A stretch of 64,000 nt of DNA, from the NCBI GenBank assembly GCA_030059675.1, contig JANVYQ010000003.1, positions 35,547-99,546 on the forward strand. The letters run 5' to 3'. The notes under the pieces were generated by a model that searched no databases, had not been told where the DNA came from, and worked only from the letters and a program-made list of their open reading frames with translations. Shown here piece after piece: positions 1-36,585 of the stretch (the first letter of the stretch is position 1; the number at the start of each line of letters is the position of its first letter). Source of the DNA: Candidatus Pelearchaeum maunauluense (GTDB lineage Archaea > Thermoproteota > Nitrososphaeria_A > Caldarchaeales > Caldarchaeaceae). The position numbers were made by a program, and so were the translations under genes.

Positions 1-1209
1 CACGTCCCTCACCACGTTTATCGCGTCTTTGATTGAGCGCTCAGCCTCGTCCACTATCCTCTGCGTGCCGCCCCTTATCAGTACTGTGAGAGCCTTCGGG
101 TTCTCGCAGCCCTCTATGAATATCATCTTATCCTCTCCTACGCGCCTCTCCTCTACCAGCTGAGCTTTGCCCAGGTCCTCGCTCCTTAGGTCGTCTATGC
201 GTGTTATCACCCTACCCCGCGTAGCCTTGGCTAGCTTATCCATATCGCTCTTCTTGATACGCCTAACCGCCATGATCCCCTTCTTGGCTAGGAAGTACTG
301 GGCCAGGTCGTCTATGCCCTTCTGGCATAGCACCACGTTGGCGCCTGTCGCGGCTATCTTCTCCACCATCTCGCGGAGCATGTCTTCCTCCTGCTTCATG
401 AACGCGCGCATCTGCTCAGGTGTCTCTATGTTCAGCTTGGCATCAAACTCGGTCTTCTCAATCTCCAGCGAAGCATCCAGCAACGCAATCCTAGCGTTCC
501 TCACAAGCTTCGGCATATCGGCATGAACTACCTCCTTATCAAGAACTATGCCGTCAACCAGCTTGGTGTCGCGGAGAGACTGGCCCTCCTTCTTCTCAAT
601 CTTAACATCATCAAGGTCAACAACCCACTTATCGCCTACCTTCTCGGCGACGCGCGTTACCGCCTCAACTGCTATCTCAGATAGGTAGTCGCTCTCCTCT
701 GCCACGAGCTTGCTGAGCATCGAAGTCTTGGCAACTTTCTTAAGTATCCCCTTGTCGTTGGGGCTTACCTTAATTCCTATCTCGTCGAGTATGTCTAGGC
801 TCTTCAGCGCTGCCTTGCGGTAGCCCTCGATTATAATTGTCGGGTGTACCTCCTTCTCTATCAACTCCTCCGCCTTGGCTAGTAGCTCGCCAGCTAGGAC
901 GACCGATGTCGTTGTACCGTCTCCAACCTCCTCATCCTGAGCCTTGGCGACCTCAACCATCATCTTAGCGACTGGGTGCTCAACATCCATCTCCTTGAGA
1001 ATTGTAGCGCCGTCGTTTGTGATGACGATATCACCGAAACTATCTACGAGCATTTTGTCCATGCCGCGCGGGCCTAGAGAAGACTTCATCGTCTCGGCGA
1101 TTACCTTAGCCACCATGATGTTGGCCGACTGGGTCTCTCTGCCCCGCATGCGGCGTGAGCCTTCCTTAAGGACGATGACAGGTTGGGTTGCGGAACCTAC
1201 CATAGCAGA
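1..1209 (-). CDS. Thermosome (group II chaperonin) subunit; N-terminus [21 protein letters not shown]... at 1209, 3' end beyond window start
   Basis: Manual reverse-strand translation gives [40 protein letters not shown] and other hallmark thermosome motifs. Not in the ORF track because it runs off the edge. Confidence 0.9.
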
Positions 1210-1249
1210 CATAATCTACAACACCTCTAACCAGACGCGCAGCGCCCCA

Positions 1250-1584: not shown

Positions 1585-2376
1585 CTATATCCTGAACGGA
1601 AGGTTCTTCACACTGACAACACGGCCATAGACGTACTTTAGGTCTGTCACGAATGGGGCGAAATCAAGCTCCTCCCCCTCGTCGCTCGGCAGGTAGCGTA
1701 TATACGGCCCAGCAGGCTTGTCGCTGAGCTCCATGTAGAAGAAGAGCGGTAGTGTGGAGGAGTCGTAGTAGTCAAAGAATGGGTAGAGTATGCCTAGGAG
1801 ATGTTTCTCTCGTTGTGCTAGGTGCCAGATTGGCGGTGTTGATGTGCTGTCGCTCATCGTGGCCACGAGCCGCATTAATGAAGCAAGGTTCCGCGCCCTA
1901 ACCATTATGGGTTTCTCACCATGCGAAACACTACTACGCTGCTTCACCGCCTCAGCAACGAAATAAGGCGTATCCTCAATCTCAACAACCACACAGTTGA
2001 TATACTTACCAGCCTCAGGGGTCGTTGTGATCTTTACCTCCTCCTTCTCCACATTGGTGTATGCGATGTATGGTGGAGGCCGGTCATTATACCATACATA
2101 GGCTAGTATTGGTATGTTTCCCTTCCAGAAGGGAATGGATGTCATATGAGCTATTACATGCTTCCCGCGTAGCGGGAAGCACCATAGGAGTGGTGGATAG
2201 TCGCTCCGCGTGGTTGCTAGTCTGGCGAGGCTAAGCAGGTCCTCTACCTCCACCGATACGGGAGGTTTTTCATGAAACGTTTTAGCTGCCTGTTTCTTCT
2301 TCAAAGCCGCCGTATCAACATTATCGCTCTGTAATATATTCTGCTCATTCTTTATAAGCCCGCTTGGGCCAGTCAT
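1585..2376 (-). CDS. Hypothetical protein made of two tandem homologous domains of about 95 aa
   Basis: Internal repeat LARLATTRSDYPPLLWCFPLRGKH... / LMRLVATMSDSTSTPPIWHLAQREKH... No family recognised. Confidence 0.5.
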   Translation of the reverse strand: MTGPSGLIKNEQNILQSDNVDTAALKKKQAAKTFHEKPPVSVEVEDLLSLARLATTRSDYPPLLWCFPLRGKHVIAHMTSIPFWKGNIPILAYVWYNDRPPPYIAYTNVEKEEVKITTTPEAGKYINCVVVEIEDTPYFVAEAVKQRSSVSHGEKPIMVRARNLASLMRLVATMSDSTSTPPIWHLAQREKHLLGILYPFFDYYDSSTLPLFFYMELSDKPAGPYIRYLPSDEGEELDFAPFVTDLKYVYGRVVSVKNLPFRI

Positions 2377-2382
2377 ACATGC

Positions 2383-3114
2383 ATGAAGGAACTCTCGGCA
2401 GATGCCTACAAGCTCGCTAAAGAGGCTTTAATGACTAGGATAGCTGGTGAGGTCATCTTCGCCCAGCAGCCTGGTGAGGCTCTTAGGAAGTGGCGTGTCC
2501 TCTTTGAGGAGAGCCAGACAGAGCTCGCGCGGATGATGGGAATAGCCCCATCAGTCTTAAGCGACTACGAGAAAAACCGCCGAAAATCGCCTGGGACCAA
2601 CTTCATAAGACGCTACGTCTCGGCTTTGATAGAGCTTGACGAGAAGCGCGGAGGGGCGCATATACGTAGATTCAGCAACCTTGTTAAAGACTTCAGCAGC
2701 GTCATACTCGCTATAGCGGAATTTACCAAGCCGCGGACAGCCGAAGAGATGGCGCGTGCGTTAGATGGTGTATGGCTAGCTGGGAAGAGCAACATGGACG
2801 CTGCAATATACGGATACACAGTCGTTGATAGCCTCCAAGCAATAATGAACCTAGACTCGCATGACTTTCTACACCTCTTCGGACAGAACTCCATGCGCCT
2901 TGTAGTCTTTACTGGAGTGAGTAGGGGAAGGTCGCCGATAATAGCTGTCAAAATATATCCAATTAAGCCGAAGATGGTTGCTATACACGGGCCGCGGAGC
3001 CCGTCTGAGGTTGACCCGCTGGGTAAGGAGCTGGCTGAGAGGGAGGGAATACCATACGTGCTCTCGCTTAAGAAAGATGTGAATAGCCTGATAGCTGCGC
3101 TCAGTAGGTTGTAG
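2383..3114 (+). CDS. Putative transcriptional regulator, XRE-type HTH near N-terminus plus C-terminal conserved domain (archaeal COG1395-like)
   Basis: HTH segment LRKWRVLFEESQTELARMMGIAPSVLSDYEKNRRKSP. Divergent from the 1585..2376 gene with only 6 bp between the start codons. Confidence 0.5.
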   Translation: MKELSADAYKLAKEALMTRIAGEVIFAQQPGEALRKWRVLFEESQTELARMMGIAPSVLSDYEKNRRKSPGTNFIRRYVSALIELDEKRGGAHIRRFSNLVKDFSSVILAIAEFTKPRTAEEMARALDGVWLAGKSNMDAAIYGYTVVDSLQAIMNLDSHDFLHLFGQNSMRLVVFTGVSRGRSPIIAVKIYPIKPKMVAIHGPRSPSEVDPLGKELAEREGIPYVLSLKKDVNSLIAALSRL

Positions 3115-3553
3115 TGGTTGTCTCCTTACGCACCAGCTTAGCGTTGAGGATACCATTAACGTATCTAATGTCCTTTATAATGACCTCAAACGGTAGGTGT
3201 AGTGTTCTCTTGAAGCCCATCCCCCCTCTGACTATGAGCTTACGGCCCGCGAGCTCTATCTTCACCCTATTCTCAGGGCCTGGCACCTGCGCGGTGAGGC
3301 TCAGGTGGTCTTCCTCCTCACGCAACTCGCAGAGCAGGTCGCTCCAGGCTTTCTTCCTAAGCGCCTTATTCAGCTCGCGTATCCAGTAAAACGCTAGACC
3401 AGCCGTTAGGGCTACGAGAATTATGCCTAGTAGCCCTTTATGGAACCTGAAGAGGAGTGTGGCTATGCCTATGAAGATTAGAGCTATGATTAGGTAGAGT
3501 ATGAAGGAGGACGATATGTCAACGCCTCTACCCCTACCCCTCTGCAGGCCTGG
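3101..3553 (-). CDS. Membrane-anchored alpha-crystallin (Hsp20)-like ORF: two predicted TM helices plus a shortened ACD. No ATG/GTG/TTG until the TTG at 3325. In frame with, and immediately after, the TGA stop of the UPF0182 gene
   Basis: Stop-free frame 3553..3104 encodes PGLQRGRGRGVDISSSFILYLIIALIFIGIATLLFRFHKGLLGIILVALTAGLAFYW...ELREEEDHLSLTAQVPGPENRVKIELAGRKLIVRGG...IRYVNGILNAKL, which resembles sHsp beta-strands and the C-terminal GVL motif. Confidence 0.35.
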   Translation of the reverse strand, partial: PGLQRGRGRGVDISSSFILYLIIALIFIGIATLLFRFHKGLLGIILVALTAGLAFYWIRELNKALRKKAWSDLLCELREEEDHLSLTAQVPGPENRVKIELAGRKLIVRGGMGFKRTLHLPFEVIIKDIRYVNGILNAKLVRKETTTTTY

Positions 3554-6376
3554 TCACCCCAGTATTATGGTCATGTAGCGTAAGACCACCACTCCATCTT
3601 CTACCATTATCGCACCCACATTTAAGCTATCTCCCTCAAGCCAGTAGAGGACCCTGCCCAGCCCCTTCTCAGTGACCCAATTCTGGAGGAACTCGTCCAG
3701 TTTTGCCTTCACGTTCTCCACGTCTCCCTCACTTATTAGGCGCACAGACCCCTCGAAGAAGACGAGGTTGGCGTTTATCTCCTCGGGCTCCTCAACCCTG
3801 AGGCCAGAATCCCTGAGGTGCTTGAGGACTATCTCCAACCACTCCTCAAACGTAAGCTCCCTAGCCTCCGGTGCGCTGGCTCCAGCGAGCTTGTAGAGGA
3901 AGTTCCTGAACGCCTCTTCAACACTATCACCCAGGCCGACGAAATACTGGCCTGTGAAGGCCGCCCCAACCGCTGCCACCGTTCCTATCTGCGTAACTAC
4001 CACGTCCTCAGCCCCCGCTGGAGCAGTGTAGACGGGGATTATATAGACTGGGTGCTGGCCTATGTTGTAGAGTATCCTCTCACCTATGCGTGGCGGGTTC
4101 TTAGGGTCTGTTGTGAGTAGCGTCTTGATTACTCTGAAATCGGGGTCGCGCTCAAGCGCCTGCTGCGCGGCCGTTGGGCCTAGGAGCTTCGTCTCTGACT
4201 CTGGTGGAACGGCGTAGAATATCATCTCACCAGTATAGGGGTAGTCGTTCCTCACCAGGATATAGCCTGCCAAGTTCCTGCCCTGCGCTCCCCTTACTTC
4301 AAGCGAGAGAAGACCAAGAAACTCCATCTTGCTAAAGCCCTGCGGCTTCTCCATAATATAATACACGCTAAGCCCCTGCGGCACCTCGTAAAACTCGCGA
4401 GCCTGGATAAACGTGGCTGGGTCGGTAACGTGATAGATGTTGAACATCTCCACACGCCACCTAAAGAGCTCGGCAGGATACCTAATCTGATTCCTCAACC
4501 ACTCAGGTACCTCCGTAGTTATGTAATCTGAATAAACCGTCTTGAAGAGCTGGGAGAAGAAGTCATCACCAGTTACTATGATGTTTATAGTCCCGTCATA
4601 CGCGTCTACGAGTGCGAAGCCTAGGAGGCGTGTGAAGGGGTTGCTGCGGGACCATGGTAGGTTGTCTGTCTTTAGGGCGACGATTAGTGGTACGAGCCAG
4701 TTGGCGCGCTCGCCGTTGGTTACGGGCAGCATGTCCACCAGCCTCCCGTCTTGCCAGCGGTAAGCGAAGTAGGGAAGTACTAGCTGCACCCGTTCATGGA
4801 CATCGCGGTAACGGAGTAGGTGTATTGTTCTATCAGGGTAGCTTAAGAAGAAGGTTATGTCAAATATCCAGCTCAGTGGCGGGGATACCTTAACCCCACC
4901 ACGCCCATCGTAGCGCACACCACCTATCTCATCTGAGTTCTCCTTTCCCTCAATAATCGCAGCCCAGGTAGTGCTGAACAAGCTATCTGCACCGCCCTCG
5001 CCATAGTATATGCGGCGCTCGCGGAAGAAGAGGCCAGGGTCAACCACGTCACCAGTATGTGCGTTAAGCATTAGGAAGCCCTCTGGAATGTGAGTATAAA
5101 CTAGGTGCTCGTTATACCATAAGTCTGCGGCCGTTACCGTGGGGGGCAGTACAGGCTTCATAGAGGCGCTCCAGTATAGGGTGTTGTTGAACCGTAGAAT
5201 GTCTGAGTCCTCAAACTGGACGTAGGGTATCAATCCTATCTCTGGCTTGAGCTTGGCGAACGCGGCGTCCCAGCCCCAGAGACTGACCCGCGAGAGTATA
5301 TCCATATTGCTCTCTATGTAGCTGTCTATATTCTCAGGGGGTATGGTAACGAGGCTGAAGTTATACGTCATTATCTTTATGTCGTCAAGCCGCGCCAGGT
5401 AGCGGTTTACCGCTATCTCCTGCGAGACATACGGGCCCTGCCACTCAAGCTTCTGGGCATCGGCTATGCTGTTCTGGATTGTTACCGCAGATGCAACAGC
5501 TAGCGCTATTAATATGAGCGCACCTGCCCTGAGGTAGATATTCCGCATAACAGGCATCTTACGCGAGTCCCAGTAAGCGAATAATGCGAATATCGCCGAA
5601 GTTACGAAGGCTGCGGTGATGAATATCTTTGTGTTGAAGTTTATGTAGTTTGAGAAGAAGATGTTAAATCCAGTCCAGGCGAGGCCTAGGCTGATTAATG
5701 CTTCTATCGTTGATGTCTTTATCGTAGCTACGCCTGTCTCTATAAATGAGATTACCGTGTGTGTTATTACCTTGATTATCTGAGTCAGCCCTATCAGGAG
5801 TATGAGTCTTATCCCTATGGCGCTTAGTATAGGTGGTATTAGCAGAGTTAAAGCTGGCGCAGCCTTTATCACCGTCTCAGCCCCCGTTGCTGAGCGCTGC
5901 TCAAACGTCGTGAAGGGCAGGCTGAAAATTCCTGGAACATGCTGGAGGCCAGAATCCCAGCCGCTGATACTTGCTATAAGCGTCATCCCAAAGAGGGCGT
6001 TGGACATTATCAGGGAGCCTATGAGTACCTTGGTTATCTGCCACATGACGAAGGTGGTGGGCTGCAGCCTGAAGCGCTCAAAGTTGAAGGGCCGCGGATG
6101 GAATAGCCCTCCGCGCATGCTGGCGAGGAATGTACGAAGAGCCCATAGAGTGAGGGATTTCCTGTCTCTTATGTTGAAACGGACAAACGCTATAACCGCT
6201 AGAATCAGCCCGCCCACATAGCTGAGGAAGAACGGCCTGATATACAGGTCGCCGAACTCGCTTATGTTTAGAAAGACTTGTAGTAGCTGGTTTCCGATGA
6301 GAGAGAAGAGTAGGGCAAAGATGATGAAAGAGACTATCCAGATAATCGCCCTACCCCTACGCCTATCTTCATACAT
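3554..6376 (-). CDS. UPF0182 family (COG1615) large membrane protein, 940 aa, N-terminal multi-TM region plus large soluble domain
   Basis: Length, N-terminal TM block followed by a long hydrophilic domain, and family-typical overall architecture. Ends with TGA at 3554-3556. Confidence 0.6.
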   Translation of the reverse strand: MYEDRRRGRAIIWIVSFIIFALLFSLIGNQLLQVFLNISEFGDLYIRPFFLSYVGGLILAVIAFVRFNIRDRKSLTLWALRTFLASMRGGLFHPRPFNFERFRLQPTTFVMWQITKVLIGSLIMSNALFGMTLIASISGWDSGLQHVPGIFSLPFTTFEQRSATGAETVIKAAPALTLLIPPILSAIGIRLILLIGLTQIIKVITHTVISFIETGVATIKTSTIEALISLGLAWTGFNIFFSNYINFNTKIFITAAFVTSAIFALFAYWDSRKMPVMRNIYLRAGALILIALAVASAVTIQNSIADAQKLEWQGPYVSQEIAVNRYLARLDDIKIMTYNFSLVTIPPENIDSYIESNMDILSRVSLWGWDAAFAKLKPEIGLIPYVQFEDSDILRFNNTLYWSASMKPVLPPTVTAADLWYNEHLVYTHIPEGFLMLNAHTGDVVDPGLFFRERRIYYGEGGADSLFSTTWAAIIEGKENSDEIGGVRYDGRGGVKVSPPLSWIFDITFFLSYPDRTIHLLRYRDVHERVQLVLPYFAYRWQDGRLVDMLPVTNGERANWLVPLIVALKTDNLPWSRSNPFTRLLGFALVDAYDGTINIIVTGDDFFSQLFKTVYSDYITTEVPEWLRNQIRYPAELFRWRVEMFNIYHVTDPATFIQAREFYEVPQGLSVYYIMEKPQGFSKMEFLGLLSLEVRGAQGRNLAGYILVRNDYPYTGEMIFYAVPPESETKLLGPTAAQQALERDPDFRVIKTLLTTDPKNPPRIGERILYNIGQHPVYIIPVYTAPAGAEDVVVTQIGTVAAVGAAFTGQYFVGLGDSVEEAFRNFLYKLAGASAPEARELTFEEWLEIVLKHLRDSGLRVEEPEEINANLVFFEGSVRLISEGDVENVKAKLDEFLQNWVTEKGLGRVLYWLEGDSLNVGAIMVEDGVVVLRYMTIILG

Positions 6377-6442
6377 CTACTGTTCAGCCAACTTTTAGCC
6401 ATGCTAATTGGCGACATTATAAGGTTTGACCAGAAATAGGGG

Positions 6443-7222
6443 CTATTTTCTCCTGATTTGCGTTGCGTCGTTCCAGAGGTATCCGAAGTAGTTTCTAGCA
6501 TATTTTGCCAGGCCAGGATGGTCTGACCATATAGCTAGGAGAAGGCCGCTCCCATCATCACCAGAGAAGACTATCACAACCTCGCGCGAATCCGCTATAA
6601 CACCGCCTCCAAACATCTGGTCCCTAACACGAACCTCAGCAACATCAAGCAACTTTGTCAAGAAGGACTGCTCAACAGTGTTGGAAACCATTATCTGAAC
6701 CTGACATCCGCGCGTGTGCGCTGCGCCAGCTATTGACTGAATCATCATAACTATCCCCTTGTTTAGCGCTGGTGCTGCTATGAGTAGCTCCTGCTCACAG
6801 CGTGTAGATACGTCGCGGATAGTCTCCATGATGCTGGCCTCGCCCCTCAGTATCCATATATCAGGCCTCTCCTTGGCTCCTCTCTTCTCGTATATCGGCA
6901 TAAGCTCGCTCAGGATGGTCTCCTCATTCCCCCTAAGCCGCTTCTCGAGCCTTAGACGCAGCGACTCCAGCGCCGTGGCTGGGGATTTGGGAACATATCT
7001 AGCGGGCCTACCGCCGTGTGTTTCAATAAATCCCTTCTCGTCAAGCGCACCCAAAACCTCATAAACCTTAGAATACGGCACCTGCGCCGCCTCACTAATC
7101 TCGCTAGCCGTCATCGGGCCATTCTCCACCAACGTTATGTAAGTCCTGCTCTCATACTCAGTAAGGCCCAACTCCTGCAGCGCCTTCCTTACCCGCTCCC
7201 TAACAGAGGATTGCTGTGACAT
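6443..7222 (-). CDS. TrmB-family transcriptional regulator (winged HTH plus C-terminal sugar-binding-like domain)
   Basis: N-terminal LGLTEYESRTYITLVENGPMTASEISEAAQVPYSKVYEVLGALDEKGFIE. Confidence 0.7.
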   Translation of the reverse strand: MSQQSSVRERVRKALQELGLTEYESRTYITLVENGPMTASEISEAAQVPYSKVYEVLGALDEKGFIETHGGRPARYVPKSPATALESLRLRLEKRLRGNEETILSELMPIYEKRGAKERPDIWILRGEASIMETIRDVSTRCEQELLIAAPALNKGIVMMIQSIAGAAHTRGCQVQIMVSNTVEQSFLTKLLDVAEVRVRDQMFGGGVIADSREVVIVFSGDDGSGLLLAIWSDHPGLAKYARNYFGYLWNDATQIRRK

Positions 7223-9699: not shown

Positions 9700-10600
9700 C
9701 TAGGGGAGCTCAACCCAGTCATCTAGGAAGGAACGCGCGTGCTGTGTGTCAACGCGGTAGGCGAATGCGGAGCCCATGCAGTTTGCGTTTAAGACGAATA
9801 AGTTGACGCCTACTATCACTTCTTCTCCTGTTTCTGTTTTGTGGATTACGGGGCCTCCTGAGTCTCCGAAGCATGTTCCTCCTGAGCCTGTTCCTAGTCC
9901 TGGGTCGTTGGTGTATTGTATGTTGAATCCATCGTTGAGCGCGCTGCGCAGGTCTATGAGCATTACTTCACCCACGTAACGGGTTCGTTCTGCTTGGAGG
10001 AATGGCCTTACTGACTGAAGTCCATAGCCTACTACTGTGAAATGAACCTCTTGGAGCCCTCTTCGCGTGGCTAGAGCGTCCAAATAGCCTTCGGGGGCTA
10101 GCTTTCCATATTCTGGCAGATCTATCTCCTCGTCAAAGATTATTAGACCAACATCATGGGTGTCGGGTATGGTTAGTCTTCCCGTCCACTCAGGATGTGC
10201 TATAGGTGTGCCTATCTCTCCTCCGCCGCATGGGTATCCTGCCACATCTGGCGTGCATGGTTCTCCAGGCTCCCAGTCAGGGTCAAGTTCTATGGGTCCT
10301 ACTTCAAACCATACCTGCGCGTGTGTGGGTATTATGTCTAAGTCTGGGTCGTAGCCTGCGCAGTGGCCCGCAGTTAGGAATATGTTGGGCGCTATCTGCG
10401 CGCCGCTACACCTCCAATAGGGGTATTAGGTTTCCTTCCTCGTCGGTGGTGTAGAAGACCGCCAGCCCGACGTATGGGTATCTATTGTCAGAGTCGGGCT
10501 CCCCAAACTGTATAGCCAGGACACTGCCCTGCGCTAGGGCTGCCAACGTCAACGCTGCTATAACAAGCGATATGGGTAGCTGTTTTCCAAAGTTTTTCAT
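9700..10600 (-). pseudogene. Secreted trypsin-like serine protease (S1 family) split by a frameshift near a GGGG run around 10411-10414. Signal peptide ORF 10406..10600, body 9700..10402
   Basis: MKNFGKQLPISLVIAALTLAALAQG signal. In the other frame, IFLTAGHCAGYDPD (His), HDVGLIIF (Asp), GDSGGPV (Ser). The full catalytic triad is present but split across two frames. Confidence 0.65.
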
Positions 10601-18179: not shown

Positions 18180-19112
18180 ATAGACCTCACCCTACCTCTT
18201 CTAAACTCACTCGCCCTAGGGAGCCTCTATACCCTAATGGCCCTTGGGCTAACTATAACGTTCTCAGTAACAAGAATACCCAACTTCGCGCACGCGGAGT
18301 TGGTTACAGTGGGCGGATACGTTACCGCCGTGCTCGTTAATTTCATGGCGTTCCCCCCATATCTGGCTCTACTGTCCGCTTTCATAGCATCGGCAATACT
18401 AGCCCTAGGCATGGACGAGCTTGTCTTCAAACCACTATACAAACGAGGCTCCAGGCCGTTATTCCTATTGGTGGCTAGTATAGGTGTGGGCCTGATAGTG
18501 CGCTACACACTCTTCTCCCTTGCCGACGCTACAGGAAACATAACAATACAAACTAATGTGTCGGTAAACCCAATAATGAGGTTTGGTCGCGCATACATAA
18601 CCATGTTCCACGCCATAGTTATACCAGTAACAATAGCCATAGTCATAATCCTACACATACTCTTCCATTACACGCTCATGGGAAAGGCTCTGAGGGCTAT
18701 TTCGGACAACGAAGACCTAGCTAGAGTCTCTGGAATACGGATATACAGGCTACGGCGAGTAGCGTGGCTGATAGCTGGAGGGGCGGCTGGACTAGCGGGA
18801 GGCTTGTGGTCAATAAGCCTGATTATAGACCCCAACTTTGGATGGGACACACTTCTACGGATATTCGCATCCTCGATACTCGGCGGATTAACAAGCTTCT
18901 GGGGGACGATAATAGGCGGATACATAGTCGGCTTCGCAGAGAATATGGGAATAGCGACGCTCAATACCTGGTTTGGAATAAACACAGCATATAGGCCACT
19001 CATATCCTTCACCATCATAGTCGCGGTATTCCTGATAAGACCGCGCGGCTTCGCTGGTATAGATGTGAGAAGTATAATGTCTCGGTTGGTGGTGAGCAGG
19101 CCACGGTCCTAG
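18180..19112 (+). CDS. livH: LivH-type permease. The conserved N-terminus (I/M)DLTLPLLNSLALGSLYTL begins at an ATA codon (18180) where ATG is expected. The first canonical start (ATG 18237) would remove about 19 conserved residues
   Basis: In-frame stop-free extension upstream of 18237 matches the LivH consensus N-terminus (MDLLLQQLLNGL...). No ATG/GTG/TTG in that extension. Confidence 0.55.
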   Translation: MDLTLPLLNSLALGSLYTLMALGLTITFSVTRIPNFAHAELVTVGGYVTAVLVNFMAFPPYLALLSAFIASAILALGMDELVFKPLYKRGSRPLFLLVASIGVGLIVRYTLFSLADATGNITIQTNVSVNPIMRFGRAYITMFHAIVIPVTIAIVIILHILFHYTLMGKALRAISDNEDLARVSGIRIYRLRRVAWLIAGGAAGLAGGLWSISLIIDPNFGWDTLLRIFASSILGGLTSFWGTIIGGYIVGFAENMGIATLNTWFGINTAYRPLISFTIIVAVFLIRPRGFAGIDVRSIMSRLVVSRPRS

Positions 19113-19216
19113 ACCAGCTATACAGCATAACACCATTCATAACAACACTACTAACGTTCTACGCCGTCTATCTAATACTAGCCCTAAGCCTAAACCTAAT
19201 CTACGGATACTGTGGA

Positions 19217-20188
19217 GTGCCAAACTTTGGTCATGTATTCTTCCAGTCGGTAGGTGCTTACGTGGCTGGGAACATGACGGCCAACGTGCTTTACATGGTT
19301 GCGGTAGCTGGTGGTGATATATGCTCCGTAGCAACCGCAGAGGTGAGGCGTAACCTAGCTATAACCAGCCCACCACTTGCTATAGGTATGTTCGTAGCCT
19401 CGCTAGCTTTAGGCGCCGTCGTGGGCGGATTGCTCGGATATATAGCAAGCTACCCAGCACTCAGGTTGAAAGAAGACTATCTCGCAATCACGCTGATATT
19501 CATAGGCGAGATAGGCAGGATAATAGCGCGAAACGAAGAAGGAATAGCCTGCGGCCTAGTCGGCCTAACAGGGGTACCAAACCCCTTCATATGGCTAGGC
19601 GACCCCAACCTATCGCTAATAGCATACACCATTATGTCAATAATCATAGCAGGCCTCATCTTCATATTCCCGCAGAAGCTCTCCAACTCCCCCTTCGGAA
19701 GACTGCTGAAGAGTGTTCGCGACGACGAGACAGCCGCGATGAGCTTGGGCAAGAACGTAGCCAAGGCGCGGGGCTGGGCCATGATAGTAGGAAGCGCAAT
19801 AGCAGCAGTTGCAGGCGTGCTCAAAGTCTTCTACGCACAGGGAGTATTCGCAGACGACTACATACCATTAACAACGTTCGTAGTCCTCTCCATGGTAATC
19901 CTGGGAGGAATGGCTAACAATAGGGGAGTAATCCTAGGAGCACTAATCATAACACTGCTGGACTTCCTAATAGCGCCCTCACTCTTCAGACTGATGGGAA
20001 TAACAATACAATTCGACATAACATACATCAAATACATCATAACAGGCCTAATCATAGTCCTAGTCCTCCTATTCAAGCCGCAGGGAATATTACCCGAAAA
20101 ACCAATAGAGACGCCTGCCTTAAGCTTGGTTAAAAAGGAAGATAAGTCATTAAGCAATAAATCCTTACAGAAAAACAGAATGAGCTGA
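19217..20188 (+). CDS. livM: LivM-type permease. Conserved N-terminal TM region (LDQLYSITPFITTLLTFYAVYLILALSLNLIYGYCG) lies upstream of the GTG at 19217 in a stop-free frame with no canonical start
   Basis: GLN-like LNLIYGYCGVPNFGHVFFQSVGAYVAG motif; 323 aa from the GTG; upstream frame is open back to 18995. Confidence 0.55.
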   Translation: MPNFGHVFFQSVGAYVAGNMTANVLYMVAVAGGDICSVATAEVRRNLAITSPPLAIGMFVASLALGAVVGGLLGYIASYPALRLKEDYLAITLIFIGEIGRIIARNEEGIACGLVGLTGVPNPFIWLGDPNLSLIAYTIMSIIIAGLIFIFPQKLSNSPFGRLLKSVRDDETAAMSLGKNVAKARGWAMIVGSAIAAVAGVLKVFYAQGVFADDYIPLTTFVVLSMVILGGMANNRGVILGALIITLLDFLIAPSLFRLMGITIQFDITYIKYIITGLIIVLVLLFKPQGILPEKPIETPALSLVKKEDKSLSNKSLQKNRMS

Positions 20189-28514: not shown

Positions 28515-29970
28515 GTGGATGTTTTGAATCCTCTAGACATATCCTACATGGGGCCATATTACCCAAGCTTTGCGCCAGAGTGGAGCAGCAGCGGAATATA
28601 CGGCCTCCATTACTATAAAGGGGCTCTTCTCTACGCCGTTGCGTTTGACGCGCTCACTATAATATACCATAAAGGAAGAGTCAAGGAGTACAGATATGAG
28701 CTTATTGGAGGACCCCCGCGAAGTGGAGGAGACACATACGGCGCAGCCGTGGGGGTTGATGATACGTTATTCTTTGGAGGCTGGGTACACGCCCCCGCAT
28801 ATTATGACCCGCCAAGAGAAAGATAACTTTCCATCACAAATATTCACATTTACACAGAATAGACCTTAATGATATGGAGATTAAGCTTCTATACAAGGAT
28901 GGGCCTGGGCGGGAAGATACCTGGAGCGCCGAGGTCTCAGACATACTATACAATCCCCTAGACGATTCCATAATACTCTTCAGAGGTGATGGACATTTTG
29001 GACATGGAGTATATTCCCTAGACAGGGGAGGAAAGACAGTCATGCGGCTCTCATCAATTCCAGTACTGAGGGGGACCTTCTTCCTTGACCACTTAATCGC
29101 TGGGATATTCTGTCCCCAGGCTTTACAGTTCCCTCCCCCTCACTCCAGCTATTCAATATAGAAAACAAAGAAACAAAAATTACCAGGTACAATATCGCAG
29201 CGTCTGCTGTTGGAAATCCTTCTCAGGGTAAGTCTATAGTAGCTGTAGCACCTCTCAGAAACCAGCTCTACGCCTTCGTTGATGATGGCGTCTTCGTCGG
29301 CGATCCGACTGGAACATACAACTGGACTCCCGATAGTGTTTTTGTGAGGCTCTTCGCGACGGGGCATGGTGTTGCGCGTTATGCTCCCTGTAGGAGGGTT
29401 AAAGTAGTGAGCTTTGGTGGTGGGTTGCTGGTTCCCATAACGAAATCTGATATAGAAAACTCTCCAGTCCCAGCTACTTCGGCTTCAGGAATACTACTCT
29501 TCATGGATGAATCATGTGTAAAGATAATACACGCTAGCGGGAGGATAACGGGATTGGCCGTAACGCCAGATTCCATACAGCTGGCAACCGTGACGTCAGA
29601 AAATACGCATACCTCCACACGGATAGATTACTGCTTTAAACAACTGCTCAAGCTACCCCATGACATCATAAACAAGCATCCACCACCCCTATCATTAATC
29701 CTAGCTAAACGCCTCACAGCAGGCGAGCAATTAGGTGGGATACCTCTGAATGGATACCATAAAAAACGCGTAGTCACAACTTCAAATAACGACAACATAT
29801 TGATGGTAAGGGAATACGATACATCAGCACCAGAAAATAGCGCAGACGAAGAAAAATACACGCTAAAGAAGGGCCGTAACGAGATAGACTTGGATGGATT
29901 CGGGAGAATCGTCTCGTTCAAGTTTGAGAAAAACGACCAAGCAGGACACCTCTATCTTTACCTCACATAA
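28515..29970 (+). pseudogene. Hypothetical gene, about 480 codons, spread over three reading frames (frame changes near 28808-28826 and 29089-29161). Lower GC than its surroundings
   Basis: Each ORF is continued stop-free in a neighbouring frame across the junction; an 85-codon open stretch precedes the 29344 start. Confidence 0.35.
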
Positions 29971-31402: not shown

Positions 31403-32143
31403 GTGAAGACTAAAGGAACAACCATAATTATTTTTCTCCTCCCATCTATACTATTCCTAAGCCTATTCGTAATATATCCGATGCTGTATAACTTCTACAT
31501 AAGTCTCTTCAAGTGGAAAGTGGTCAGAATAGAATCATTTATCGGCCTGGATAACTATGTCAAGCTACTTAACAATCCCCAATTCCATAGGGCGTTCATA
31601 AACAACCTAATCTGGATACTTATTCACGTACCCACAACAACAGTTTTAGGACTTCTCCTAGCTGTTCTCCTCAAGCGCGTCAAGGGCTCTTACATAATCA
31701 AGTCCGTAATCTTCCTAGGTATGGTCATACCCCAGATAGTTGTCGGCATAATGCTGCTCTTCATGTTCGACTCGGATGCACTGGATTCGCGGTAGTAGGT
31801 TATTCCGCTGGGCTTGAAGGAATACCCAAAGACCTATACGACGCCGCGGTTGATGGAGCTTCTCCTTTCAAAACATTCTGGCACATAACTATACCCATGT
31901 TGAGGCCCGCAACAATAGTTGTGGTTACTATGACCCTAATCTGGGTTCTAAAGATATTCGATATAGTTTATGTAGCCACGCGCGGAGGGGCCTGGAGGAG
32001 CTACAAACGTAATGGCTTATATGATGTATGAGCAGGGTTTCGTCTTCTATAAGTGGGGGGTAGCTGCCGCTATAGCGACGATATTCACCGTGATAATACT
32101 GGTGTTCTCAATATATCTGGTGCGCTCTATGGTGAGAAGATGA
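31403..32143 (+). pseudogene. MalF/UgpA-type ABC permease broken by two frameshifts (about 31780; GGGG run about 31986)
   Basis: Conserved segments MLLFMF / SAGLEGIPKDLYDAAVDGASPFKTFWHITIPMLRPATIVVV...VATRGG / GGATNVMAYMMYEQGF... lie in three frames. Confidence 0.65.
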
Positions 32144-36072: not shown

Positions 36073-36585
36073 CTACCTCCTCTCGTACTCACTATAATGA
36101 TGTTGTTCTATGCTTTGTGCGTGTATTGGTCTGAATGGCTCTAGTCTGCGTAGCCACGAATATACTAGATACCCTGCGATTACCGTGATGAGTTGGCCTC
36201 CAACCGCTGCCATTAACGCCTCGCTTAGCAACGCGCCTGTTACTGTAGAGATTAGATATGCTGTCCATATCCCTGTGAGAACCGCGTATATCAGAGCTCC
36301 CAGCAATACGCTCTGACGGCGCATAAGGTATATGGCCAGCAGGCCGGCTAATGCGAAGATCGTTGTGAGGAGGTCCATAGGTCCAAACGGTGAGGCGCTG
36401 TTGGTCATGAACTGGCCGAATAGGAATCCCAGCAGCGCTGGCACGCCGAAGAGAGCTATGAGCGGGCTTACTATTTCGCCAGGCTTGATGAAAAGTCCCG
36501 CGATCTCAATCCTTCCTATGGCTGCTGTTCCAGCTACGTAGAAGCCAGCCATCAGCACAAAAACGGCAAAATCGCTATACCTCAT
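36073..36585 (-). CDS. QueT/ECF-S-like small membrane protein, paralog of 7297..7812
   Basis: Shared motifs with the first copy (IKPGEIVSPLIALFGVPALLGFLFGQFMTNSASPFGPMDLL). Confidence 0.4.
   Translation of the reverse strand: MRYSDFAVFVLMAGFYVAGTAAIGRIEIAGLFIKPGEIVSPLIALFGVPALLGFLFGQFMTNSASPFGPMDLLTTIFALAGLLAIYLMRRQSVLLGALIYAVLTGIWTAYLISTVTGALLSEALMAAVGGQLITVIAGYLVYSWLRRLEPFRPIHAQSIEQHHYSEYERR

Follow-up and report, generated by a model that had tools for sequence, protein, structure and literature searches.

Initiation at near-cognate codons is known in prokaryotes, bacterial examples being the AUU of Escherichia coli infC and pcnB, and translation table 11 lists CTG, ATA, ATC and ATT as starts. 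In archaea, termination-reinitiation operates in coupled gene pairs whose intergenic distance lies between about −8 and +10 nucleotides (nt), and the pairs concerned are enriched for subunits of one complex (PMC10666635). UPF0182, a long-enigmatic family, has been described in actinobacteria, where its homologues consist of seven transmembrane (TM) helices and a periplasmic dome, and where MSMEG1959 has been tied to a small TM partner, MSMEG4237, as well as to YccA and FtsH, in the context of FtsH/YccA-dependent membrane-protein quality control (bioRxiv 10.1101/2025.11.14.688347). Among the papers listed by our literature search on UPF0182, none deals with archaea, and a 2022 review of archaeal small heat-shock proteins (sHsps) nowhere uses the word "transmembrane". 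Here we describe an archaeal locus to which all of these bear a resemblance, found in 64,000 nt of Candidatus Pelearchaeum maunauluense (contig JANVYQ010000003.1, positions 35,547 to 99,546; hereafter the window). Directly behind a UPF0182 gene lies a 150-codon open frame that has no canonical start in its first half, and that encodes a two-helix membrane hairpin followed by a minimal alpha-crystallin-type domain (ACD); the protein is referred to below as 2TM-ACD.

The UPF0182 gene (PF03699 match at E=1.1e-39 and 136.7 bits in a Pfam scan, against a cutoff of 27) terminates on the minus strand with a TGA at 3556-3554. A further 150 sense codons (3553..3104) follow in its frame before a second TGA closes it at 3103-3101. 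An exact look-up of the UPF0182 protein in the assembly collection returned no record. In an open reading frame (ORF) listing, the earliest ATG, GTG or TTG within this frame is a TTG at 3325-3323, which is codon 77. A start at this TTG would yield a TM-less fragment of 74 amino acids (aa); this is the start that ORF finders choose and, because no canonical start comes before codon 77, the 74-aa ORF alone appears in the list. ATG, GTG and TTG make up 5.2% of codons in the long ORFs of the window, and from this codon usage the chance of 76 codons without any of the three is P ~0.017. The run by itself is unusual, not extreme. The key point, on alignment with the family, is that the homologous start codon is absent from the window, not the length of the run. 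The features at the junction, all on the minus strand, are as follows.

3554..6376, minus: UPF0182 gene, 940 aa (PF03699; hydropathy and positive-inside analysis)
3554..3560, minus: GGGGTGA, the last glycine codon and the TGA of UPF0182, Shine-Dalgarno (SD)-like for the downstream gene (junction alignment)
3545..3547, minus: CTG, proposed near-cognate start at +6 nt from the UPF0182 stop (homologous to the starts of relatives; also in a second Pelearchaeum genome)
3101..3547, minus: proposed 2TM-ACD gene, 148 codons from the CTG plus the TGA stop at 3103-3101 (26 homologues; dN/dS)
3515..3517, minus: ATA (codon 13), the other near-cognate candidate, at +36 nt from the UPF0182 stop (aligned with a called ATG; also in the second genome)
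3323..3325, minus: TTG (codon 77), the first canonical start-type codon (ORF listing: 3101..3325, 74 aa)

A protein search with the ORF returned 26 homologues of 138-147 aa, at 89-99% coverage that included both TM helices. A profile search raised this to 90, all of them from Caldarchaeales/Aigarchaeota-type metagenome-assembled genomes (MAGs) and none with a recorded Pfam domain. A profile search run exhaustively against 1.84 billion representatives found 94 proteins; a metagenome scan with the window protein alone gave 600 pattern matches, of which 0 were confirmed. The family is a narrow Caldarchaeales (Aigarchaeota) group whose members, of 130-158 aa, combine two TM helices with a minimal alpha-crystallin-type domain. 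Its alignment has 30 invariant columns, those in the hairpin including R36, G40, L42, G43, Y56 and W57, and the invariant stretches of the C-terminal domain including AQVPGP and YVNGI. Hydropathy places the TM segments of the window protein at residues 17-35 and 37-55, and an AlphaFold2 (AF2) model, with a mean pLDDT of 78 overall and 86-90 in the ACD-like domain, places helices at 15-37 and 41-71. Numbered by the 150-codon ORF, the parts of the protein are:

3443..3511, minus: TM helix 1, residues 15-37 (Kyte-Doolittle peak 2.93; AF2 helix 15-37)
3383..3433, minus: TM helix 2, residues 41-57, the helix running on to residue 71 as a basic cytoplasmic segment (hydropathy, AF2, conserved residues)
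3125..3340, minus: minimal alpha-crystallin-type beta-sandwich, residues 72-143, seven strands (AF2, Foldseek, profile)

The window protein has no match to Pfam HSP20 (PF00011) at E<=1, and a scan of 20 family members gave at best one match (1/20, E=0.11). As the HSP20 scan gave no usable match, the question of the ACD was taken to a profile search of the PDB, a structure model and a fold search. Foldseek against the PDB returned sHsp ACDs as its top 46 matches (probability 1.00), the best being the ACD of Sulfolobus solfataricus Hsp20.1 (4rzk; TM-score 0.73, root-mean-square deviation 1.5 Å, 26% identity), which the family profile also matches at E=2.6e-5. Weaker library-wide profile matches (E 1.7e-6 to 3e-4) include the PF00011-passing proteins P0159, P0162, P0170, P0175 and P0178. 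By hydropathy and the AF2 model, the two-TM hairpin occupies the place of the flexible N-terminal arm of sHsps. A C-terminal I-X-I/V motif is absent, the tail of the window protein reading VRKETTTTTY. On profile and predicted fold, the domain belongs to the ACD superfamily as a divergent and shortened form, and the protein is no canonical sHsp. The original prediction, made from the sequence of the window, had drawn the open frame behind the UPF0182 TGA, the absence of ATG, GTG and TTG from its first 76 codons, and two TM helices. Coordinates and content of the frame are as drawn, the first canonical start is indeed codon 77, and hydropathy and AF2 agree on the helices; the sHsp-like ACD that was also predicted is upheld by the profile match and the fold search, but not by the Pfam HSP20 model.

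The hairpin, with its Arg/Lys-rich flanks, would fit an N-in/C-in topology that leaves the ACD in the cytoplasm. UPF0182 itself has seven N-terminal TM helices by hydropathy, followed by a 636-aa domain without a TM segment, and its C-terminus would lie outside the cell, as suggested by the positive-inside pattern and by the topology described for actinobacteria.

The start of the 2TM-ACD gene can be compared across the family in ~45 distinct loci, gathered through look-ups in assemblies and one scan each of genomes and metagenomes. Outside Pelearchaeum, every relative begins the gene with ATG, GTG or TTG, between −4 and +45 nt relative to the stop of UPF0182. In the closer clades the start overlaps this stop (NTGA, −4; or −1) or follows it by 0 to +10 nt (seen at 0 and at +4 to +10), and in a distant clade it lies +24 to +45 nt downstream; the −4 overlap is the commonest arrangement in the family. 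Relative to UPF0182, the small gene is found in frame offsets 0, 1 and 2 among the relatives, and is in frame in the window, in the second Pelearchaeum genome and in a minority of relatives. Every UPF0182 homologue examined ends at the same position as that of the window. The GGTGA at this end is invariant in an 8-sequence junction alignment, and the start codons of close relatives lie 4-10 nt downstream of it, a range that includes the 6 nt between GGGGTGA and the window CTG. GGTGA-type motifs precede 9/41 of the long ORFs of the window, compared with 1/41 in the control. In the alignment, the CTG-CAG of the window (3547-3542) stands opposite ATG-CAG in one relative (L007), TTG-CAA in another (L001) and a GTG at +6 in a third (L012), and in the window as in the relatives the aligned start is followed by the same basic tail (M-Q-x-K/R...) and then by TM helix 1. 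The ATA at 3517-3515 is preceded by GGTAGAGG, and is aligned with the ATG from which a gene caller began the protein of the closest outgroup (P0001 of locus L001, 138 aa). The window also has a GTG that overlaps the UPF0182 stop (GTGA) and opens a 7-codon frame ending in GGG-TAG (3531-3557, minus strand). Relative to L001, which has a GTG at −4 in frame, the window carries a 1-nt indel right after the TGA that puts its GTG out of frame. A second GGG-TAG follows the first in the 3531-3557 region.

An independent MAG, Candidatus Pelearchaeum sp. S146_89_esom (WAQC01000060.1; L010 below), is 91.9% identical in nucleotides to the window over 7.5 kilobases (kb), and its TGA, frame, CTG and ATA are identical to those of the window. 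Its first canonical start is a TTG at codon 41, the product of a synonymous leucine change, and none occurs before TM helix 1. A canonical start is lacking only in the window and L010; a second metagenome scan, with the family alignment as query, found 24 loci and no further member of the Pelearchaeum clade, and the start-less state is known from these two genomes only. As it is common to both, it predates their split. Since then, codons 15-76 have accumulated 13 synonymous changes and 1 non-synonymous change (dS 0.36, dN 0.007, omega, i.e. dN/dS, 0.02), a departure from neutral expectation with a binomial P=1.3e-7. Omega is 0.08 over codons 77-150, and for the full 150-codon ORF dN/dS comes to 0.078. 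Neither the window nor L010 has a frameshift or stop in the ORF, and the family-invariant residues of both TM helices are all retained in the window protein. Changes at the junction are confined to the codon after the TGA (CCA in the window and TTA in L010, differing at 2/3 bases) and a Ser/Pro difference at codon 14. Given strong purifying selection on the 62 codons upstream of it, the TTG at 3325 is not the real start. Judged by this substitution pattern, the start-less part with the TM hairpin is translated and selected, and is neither an error nor a pseudogene.

With moderate confidence, we read the 150-codon frame as a separate, translationally coupled gene that starts at the near-cognate CUG at 3547. 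The product would be a protein of ~148 aa, in which a basic N-terminal tail leads into a two-helix membrane hairpin, with a minimal alpha-crystallin-type domain behind it in the cytoplasm. The gene would be an obligate downstream partner of UPF0182 in Caldarchaeales; in relatives its start overlaps the UPF0182 stop or is a few nt from it, as is usual for translationally coupled genes. In the Pelearchaeum lineage, CTG (3547-3545) stands at the homologous position, 6 nt past GGGGTGA. Ribosomes ending UPF0182, or bound at the SD-like motif, would initiate at the CUG with initiator tRNA, giving a low yet sufficient yield of the partner protein, and the in-frame relation to the UPF0182 TGA would be a one-in-three coincidence. 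CUG is favoured because it takes up the homologous start position, has the family-typical spacing from the SD-like motif and falls in the distance range of reinitiation; like the downstream gene of coupled pairs, it is on the same strand as the upstream gene, at +6 nt. Several considerations weigh against initiation at CUG. The downstream gene of a coupled pair is expected to have a canonical start, and here no ATG, GTG or TTG precedes codon 77. Reviews of archaeal initiation give AUG, GUG and UUG only, CUG not being a recognised start (PMC7531240), and nothing relevant turned up when the literature was searched for CUG starts in archaea. The case for CUG in this uncultured lineage is a sequence-based one, the two start-less genomes do not differ over the 12 codons from the CTG to the ATA, which makes this segment uninformative on its own translation, and AUA initiation, TGA read-through and a +1 frameshift are not separable from CUG by comparing sequences.

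The same separate gene could instead be initiated at the AUA of codon 13 (3517-3515), giving a 138-aa product, with the purine-rich GGGGTAGGGGTAGAGG stretch acting as an SD-like element. The ATA is conserved in L010, has a GAGG 7 nt upstream and aligns exactly with the called ATG start of the closest outgroup, P0001. Yet L001, the locus of that outgroup, has an in-frame TTG at +5 and a GTG at −4 upstream of its called ATG, most relatives start ~10-13 codons further upstream, at the CTG position, and the product would be without the basic N-terminal tail that the family conserves. At +36 nt from the stop, moreover, the AUA is too far for reinitiation, and coupling would be lost (PMC10666635). 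We regard this as an unlikely account, though one to be kept in mind. It differs from a second group of explanations, in which the ACD of Pelearchaeum would be made by recoding at the end of UPF0182, through TGA read-through or a prfB-like +1 shift; taken together, these are quite doubtful. TGA-C is a leaky stop context in bacteria and eukaryotes, and the window has this context, with the ORF in the UPF0182 frame in both Pelearchaeum genomes and no canonical start available to it, so that leaky or programmed read-through would extend UPF0182 by two TM helices and an ACD. However, one placement in three would be in frame by chance alone, the context in L010 is TGA-T, and the post-stop codon differs at two of its three bases between the genomes, unlike the conserved ORF that follows. 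TGA is also a normal stop in the window, where it terminates 15/53 long ORFs. Programmed read-through goes with an arrangement conserved in relatives and with a stimulatory downstream RNA structure, and neither is found: folding of the junction RNA over 106 nt and 156 nt, meant to reveal any stimulator of read-through or frameshifting, gave no stability beyond that of shuffled sequence (z +0.38 and +1.07), and the relatives, in frame offsets 0, 1 and 2 and each with its own start, point to no conserved fusion and to read-through not being a conserved mode of expression. A fusion would further put the Arg/Lys-rich flanks and the ACD outside the cell, against the positive-inside rule. Read-through is improbable on these grounds.

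The other route by recoding would begin at the GTG that overlaps the stop (GTGA) and shift by +1 at GGG-UAG seven codons on, in the manner of prfB, into the ACD frame. The window reads GTG ACC AGG CCT GCA GAG GGG TAG G, the L010 frame is the same except in its second codon (ATT for ACC), a slip from GGG to GGU would enter the ORF frame, and relative to L001, where the GTG at −4 is in frame, the window has the 1-nt indel after the TGA. This is purely a matter of pattern, however, in a state shared by two near-identical sequences only, and initiation at CTG requires no recoding; we know of no precedent for such a frameshift in this family, and consider it highly improbable. Were recoding nevertheless true, synthesis of the chaperone-like partner would be tied at a small, constant ratio to that of UPF0182, and the locus would show an archaeon that has gone over, by natural evolution, from coupled initiation to recoding. 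Loss of the start might also mean that the gene is dead, or that the 74-aa soluble fragment alone is made from TTG 3325, as 76 codons without a canonical start and the 74-aa piece reported by automatic ORF callers could suggest. The start-less state predates the split of the window and L010, and the excess of synonymous over non-synonymous change since then (13 to 1, omega 0.02), the intact frame in both genomes and the retention of every family-invariant residue in TM helices 1 and 2 strongly disfavour this very improbable explanation. That a sequencing or assembly error removed the start codon is close to negligible: the DNA seems to come from an uncultured lineage represented by MAGs, but an assembly from another sample, 8% divergent in nucleotides, has the identical CTG and ATA. 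The original prediction had offered three routes for the frame. Its read-through or fused UPF0182 is contradicted by relatives that have ordinary starts of their own (ATG, GTG or TTG, from a 4-nt overlap to 45 nt past the stop) in all three frame offsets, its decayed start, if taken as that of a dying gene, by the dN/dS of 0.02 in the start-less part, and its rare initiator (CTG or ATA) is the route favoured here.

What is new is that a conserved partner gene of UPF0182, itself not described before, has a putative CTG (or ATA) start specific to one lineage. Already known are near-cognate starts as a phenomenon, and members of the family as hypothetical proteins in databases, where UniRef labels some as Hsp20/alpha-crystallin. 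The view that a membrane-tethered ACD fused to or following UPF0182 had not been described looks fair as regards the searchable literature. The locus offers a natural archaeal case in which all canonical starts have been lost and strong purifying selection has been kept over a dS of ~0.36. A start lost under selection implies that initiation at CUG, or perhaps at AUA, is productive. Genes of this kind are truncated or overlooked by standard gene callers, the outcome here being the TM-less 74-aa fragment. Among the other frames of the window, five stop-to-stop frames of at least 120 codons have their first ATG, GTG or TTG 60-102 codons in: 9700-10425 (minus), 18995-20188 (plus), 29089-29970 (plus), 31591-32031 (plus) and 36092-36505 (minus). 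In these the upstream part may simply be non-coding or overlapping sequence.

The pairing with UPF0182 is general. In all ~45 distinct loci with enough upstream sequence, the 2TM-ACD gene lies directly 3' of UPF0182 on the same strand. This adjacency is kept even in the most distant member (P0090, 29% identity), whose other neighbours differ. Close relatives share a gene order of TrmB regulator, UPF0182, 2TM-ACD and a convergent HTH_3 gene, with a thermosome gene nearby, and the window layout matches this, the thermosome gene included. The flanking regulators of the window are:

6443..7222, minus: TrmB-family regulator gene, upstream of UPF0182 (Pfam TrmB E=4.9e-25)
2383..3114, plus: HTH_3 regulator gene, convergent, with a 14-nt overlap with the 3' end of the 2TM-ACD gene (Pfam HTH_3 E=1.4e-6)

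A TrmB gene is likewise upstream of UPF0182 in L002, L007 and L056, and the convergent HTH_3/2TM-ACD overlap recurs in L002 and L007. The thermosome (group II chaperonin) subunit of the window is represented by its N-terminal ~404 aa (1-1212, minus strand), being cut by the window start; in L002, L007 and L056 the thermosome gene is 2-4 kb from the UPF0182/2TM-ACD pair, on differing sides. Its proximity suggests, by gene order, a proteostasis flavour to the neighbourhood. Between the HTH_3 and thermosome genes of the window is an ORF of 263 aa (1588-2376, minus strand) with no Pfam match at E<=1, and in relatives this position is occupied by a 229-272 aa ORF, also without a Pfam match. The TrmB-UPF0182 intergenic region (6377-6445) is identical to L010 at 68/69 positions, compared with ~92% for the flanking genes, and on this conservation is probably a promoter or operator. 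Intein-bearing genes stand near the loci of some relatives, namely a radical SAM gene with Intein_splicing/LAGLIDADG (L002, 1-654) and an RtcB gene with an intein (L054, 5075-8029); they are unrelated to the start-less gene.

The UPF0182/2TM-ACD junction is itself a region of high identity, as set against the aligned identity profile of the window and L010 over 7.5 kb. The last 96 nt of UPF0182, including its TGA, form the longest perfectly identical run in the alignment, and the junction as a whole (3515-3649, these 96 nt plus the next 39 nt) is identical at 133/135 positions, compared with 91.9% overall. This identity may stem from constraint on the translation-initiation region of the downstream gene. 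Folding found no stable RNA structure to explain it, an Rfam scan of the window returned two tRNAs only, both far from the junction, and a scan of 2900-3800 for bacterial promoters and terminators returned nothing relevant. A special constraint on the 36 identical nt between GGC and ATA was also considered and rejected, there being 41 equal or longer identical runs in the 7.5-kb alignment.

As regards function, genes that are always adjacent and whose start and stop overlap typically encode subunits of one complex (PMC10666635), and the 2TM-ACD protein is a concrete candidate for a physical partner of UPF0182. In the proposed arrangement, its hairpin would dock on the TM region of UPF0182, and its ACD would hold the cytoplasmic segments of misfolded membrane-protein clients. 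By analogy, an archaeal UPF0182 partner with a cytoplasmic chaperone-type ACD, encoded near a thermosome gene, would fit the quality-control theme. The pairing of UPF0182 with a membrane-anchored ACD across Caldarchaeales would in turn lend independent comparative support to the quality-control proposal for UPF0182.

Set beside the systems known to date, the locus combines familiar and unfamiliar traits. Like infC and pcnB, the 2TM-ACD gene is a conserved, selected gene without an AUG, GUG or UUG start, and low-efficiency initiation could set a low stoichiometry of the partner here; the codon differs from theirs in being a lineage-specific replacement, not a family-wide regulatory feature. With archaeal coupled pairs (PMC6728339, PMC10666635) it shares the common strand and the −4 overlap or few-nt gap seen in relatives, the gap being 6 nt here; it departs from them in that the putatively coupled downstream start is CTG and not ATG, GTG or TTG. 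The product resembles the sHsp/ACD proteins (PF00011; 4RZK) in its predicted seven-stranded beta-sandwich, in profile-level homology and in the characteristic ..(T)AxVPG.. and ..Y.NGIL.. motifs. Its domain is, however, only ~70 residues long, with a very short beta5-beta7 region and no PF00011 match, it has a membrane hairpin in place of the variable N-terminal arm and no C-terminal I-X-I/V, and its gene is fixed beside UPF0182. The closest parallel in terms of partnership is the MSMEG1959 system: there too, a seven-TM UPF0182 protein whose large domain lies outside the cell is linked to a small membrane protein. This is a likeness by description, and the archaeal partner stands apart in carrying a chaperone-type ACD and in being encoded in a putative operon with UPF0182.

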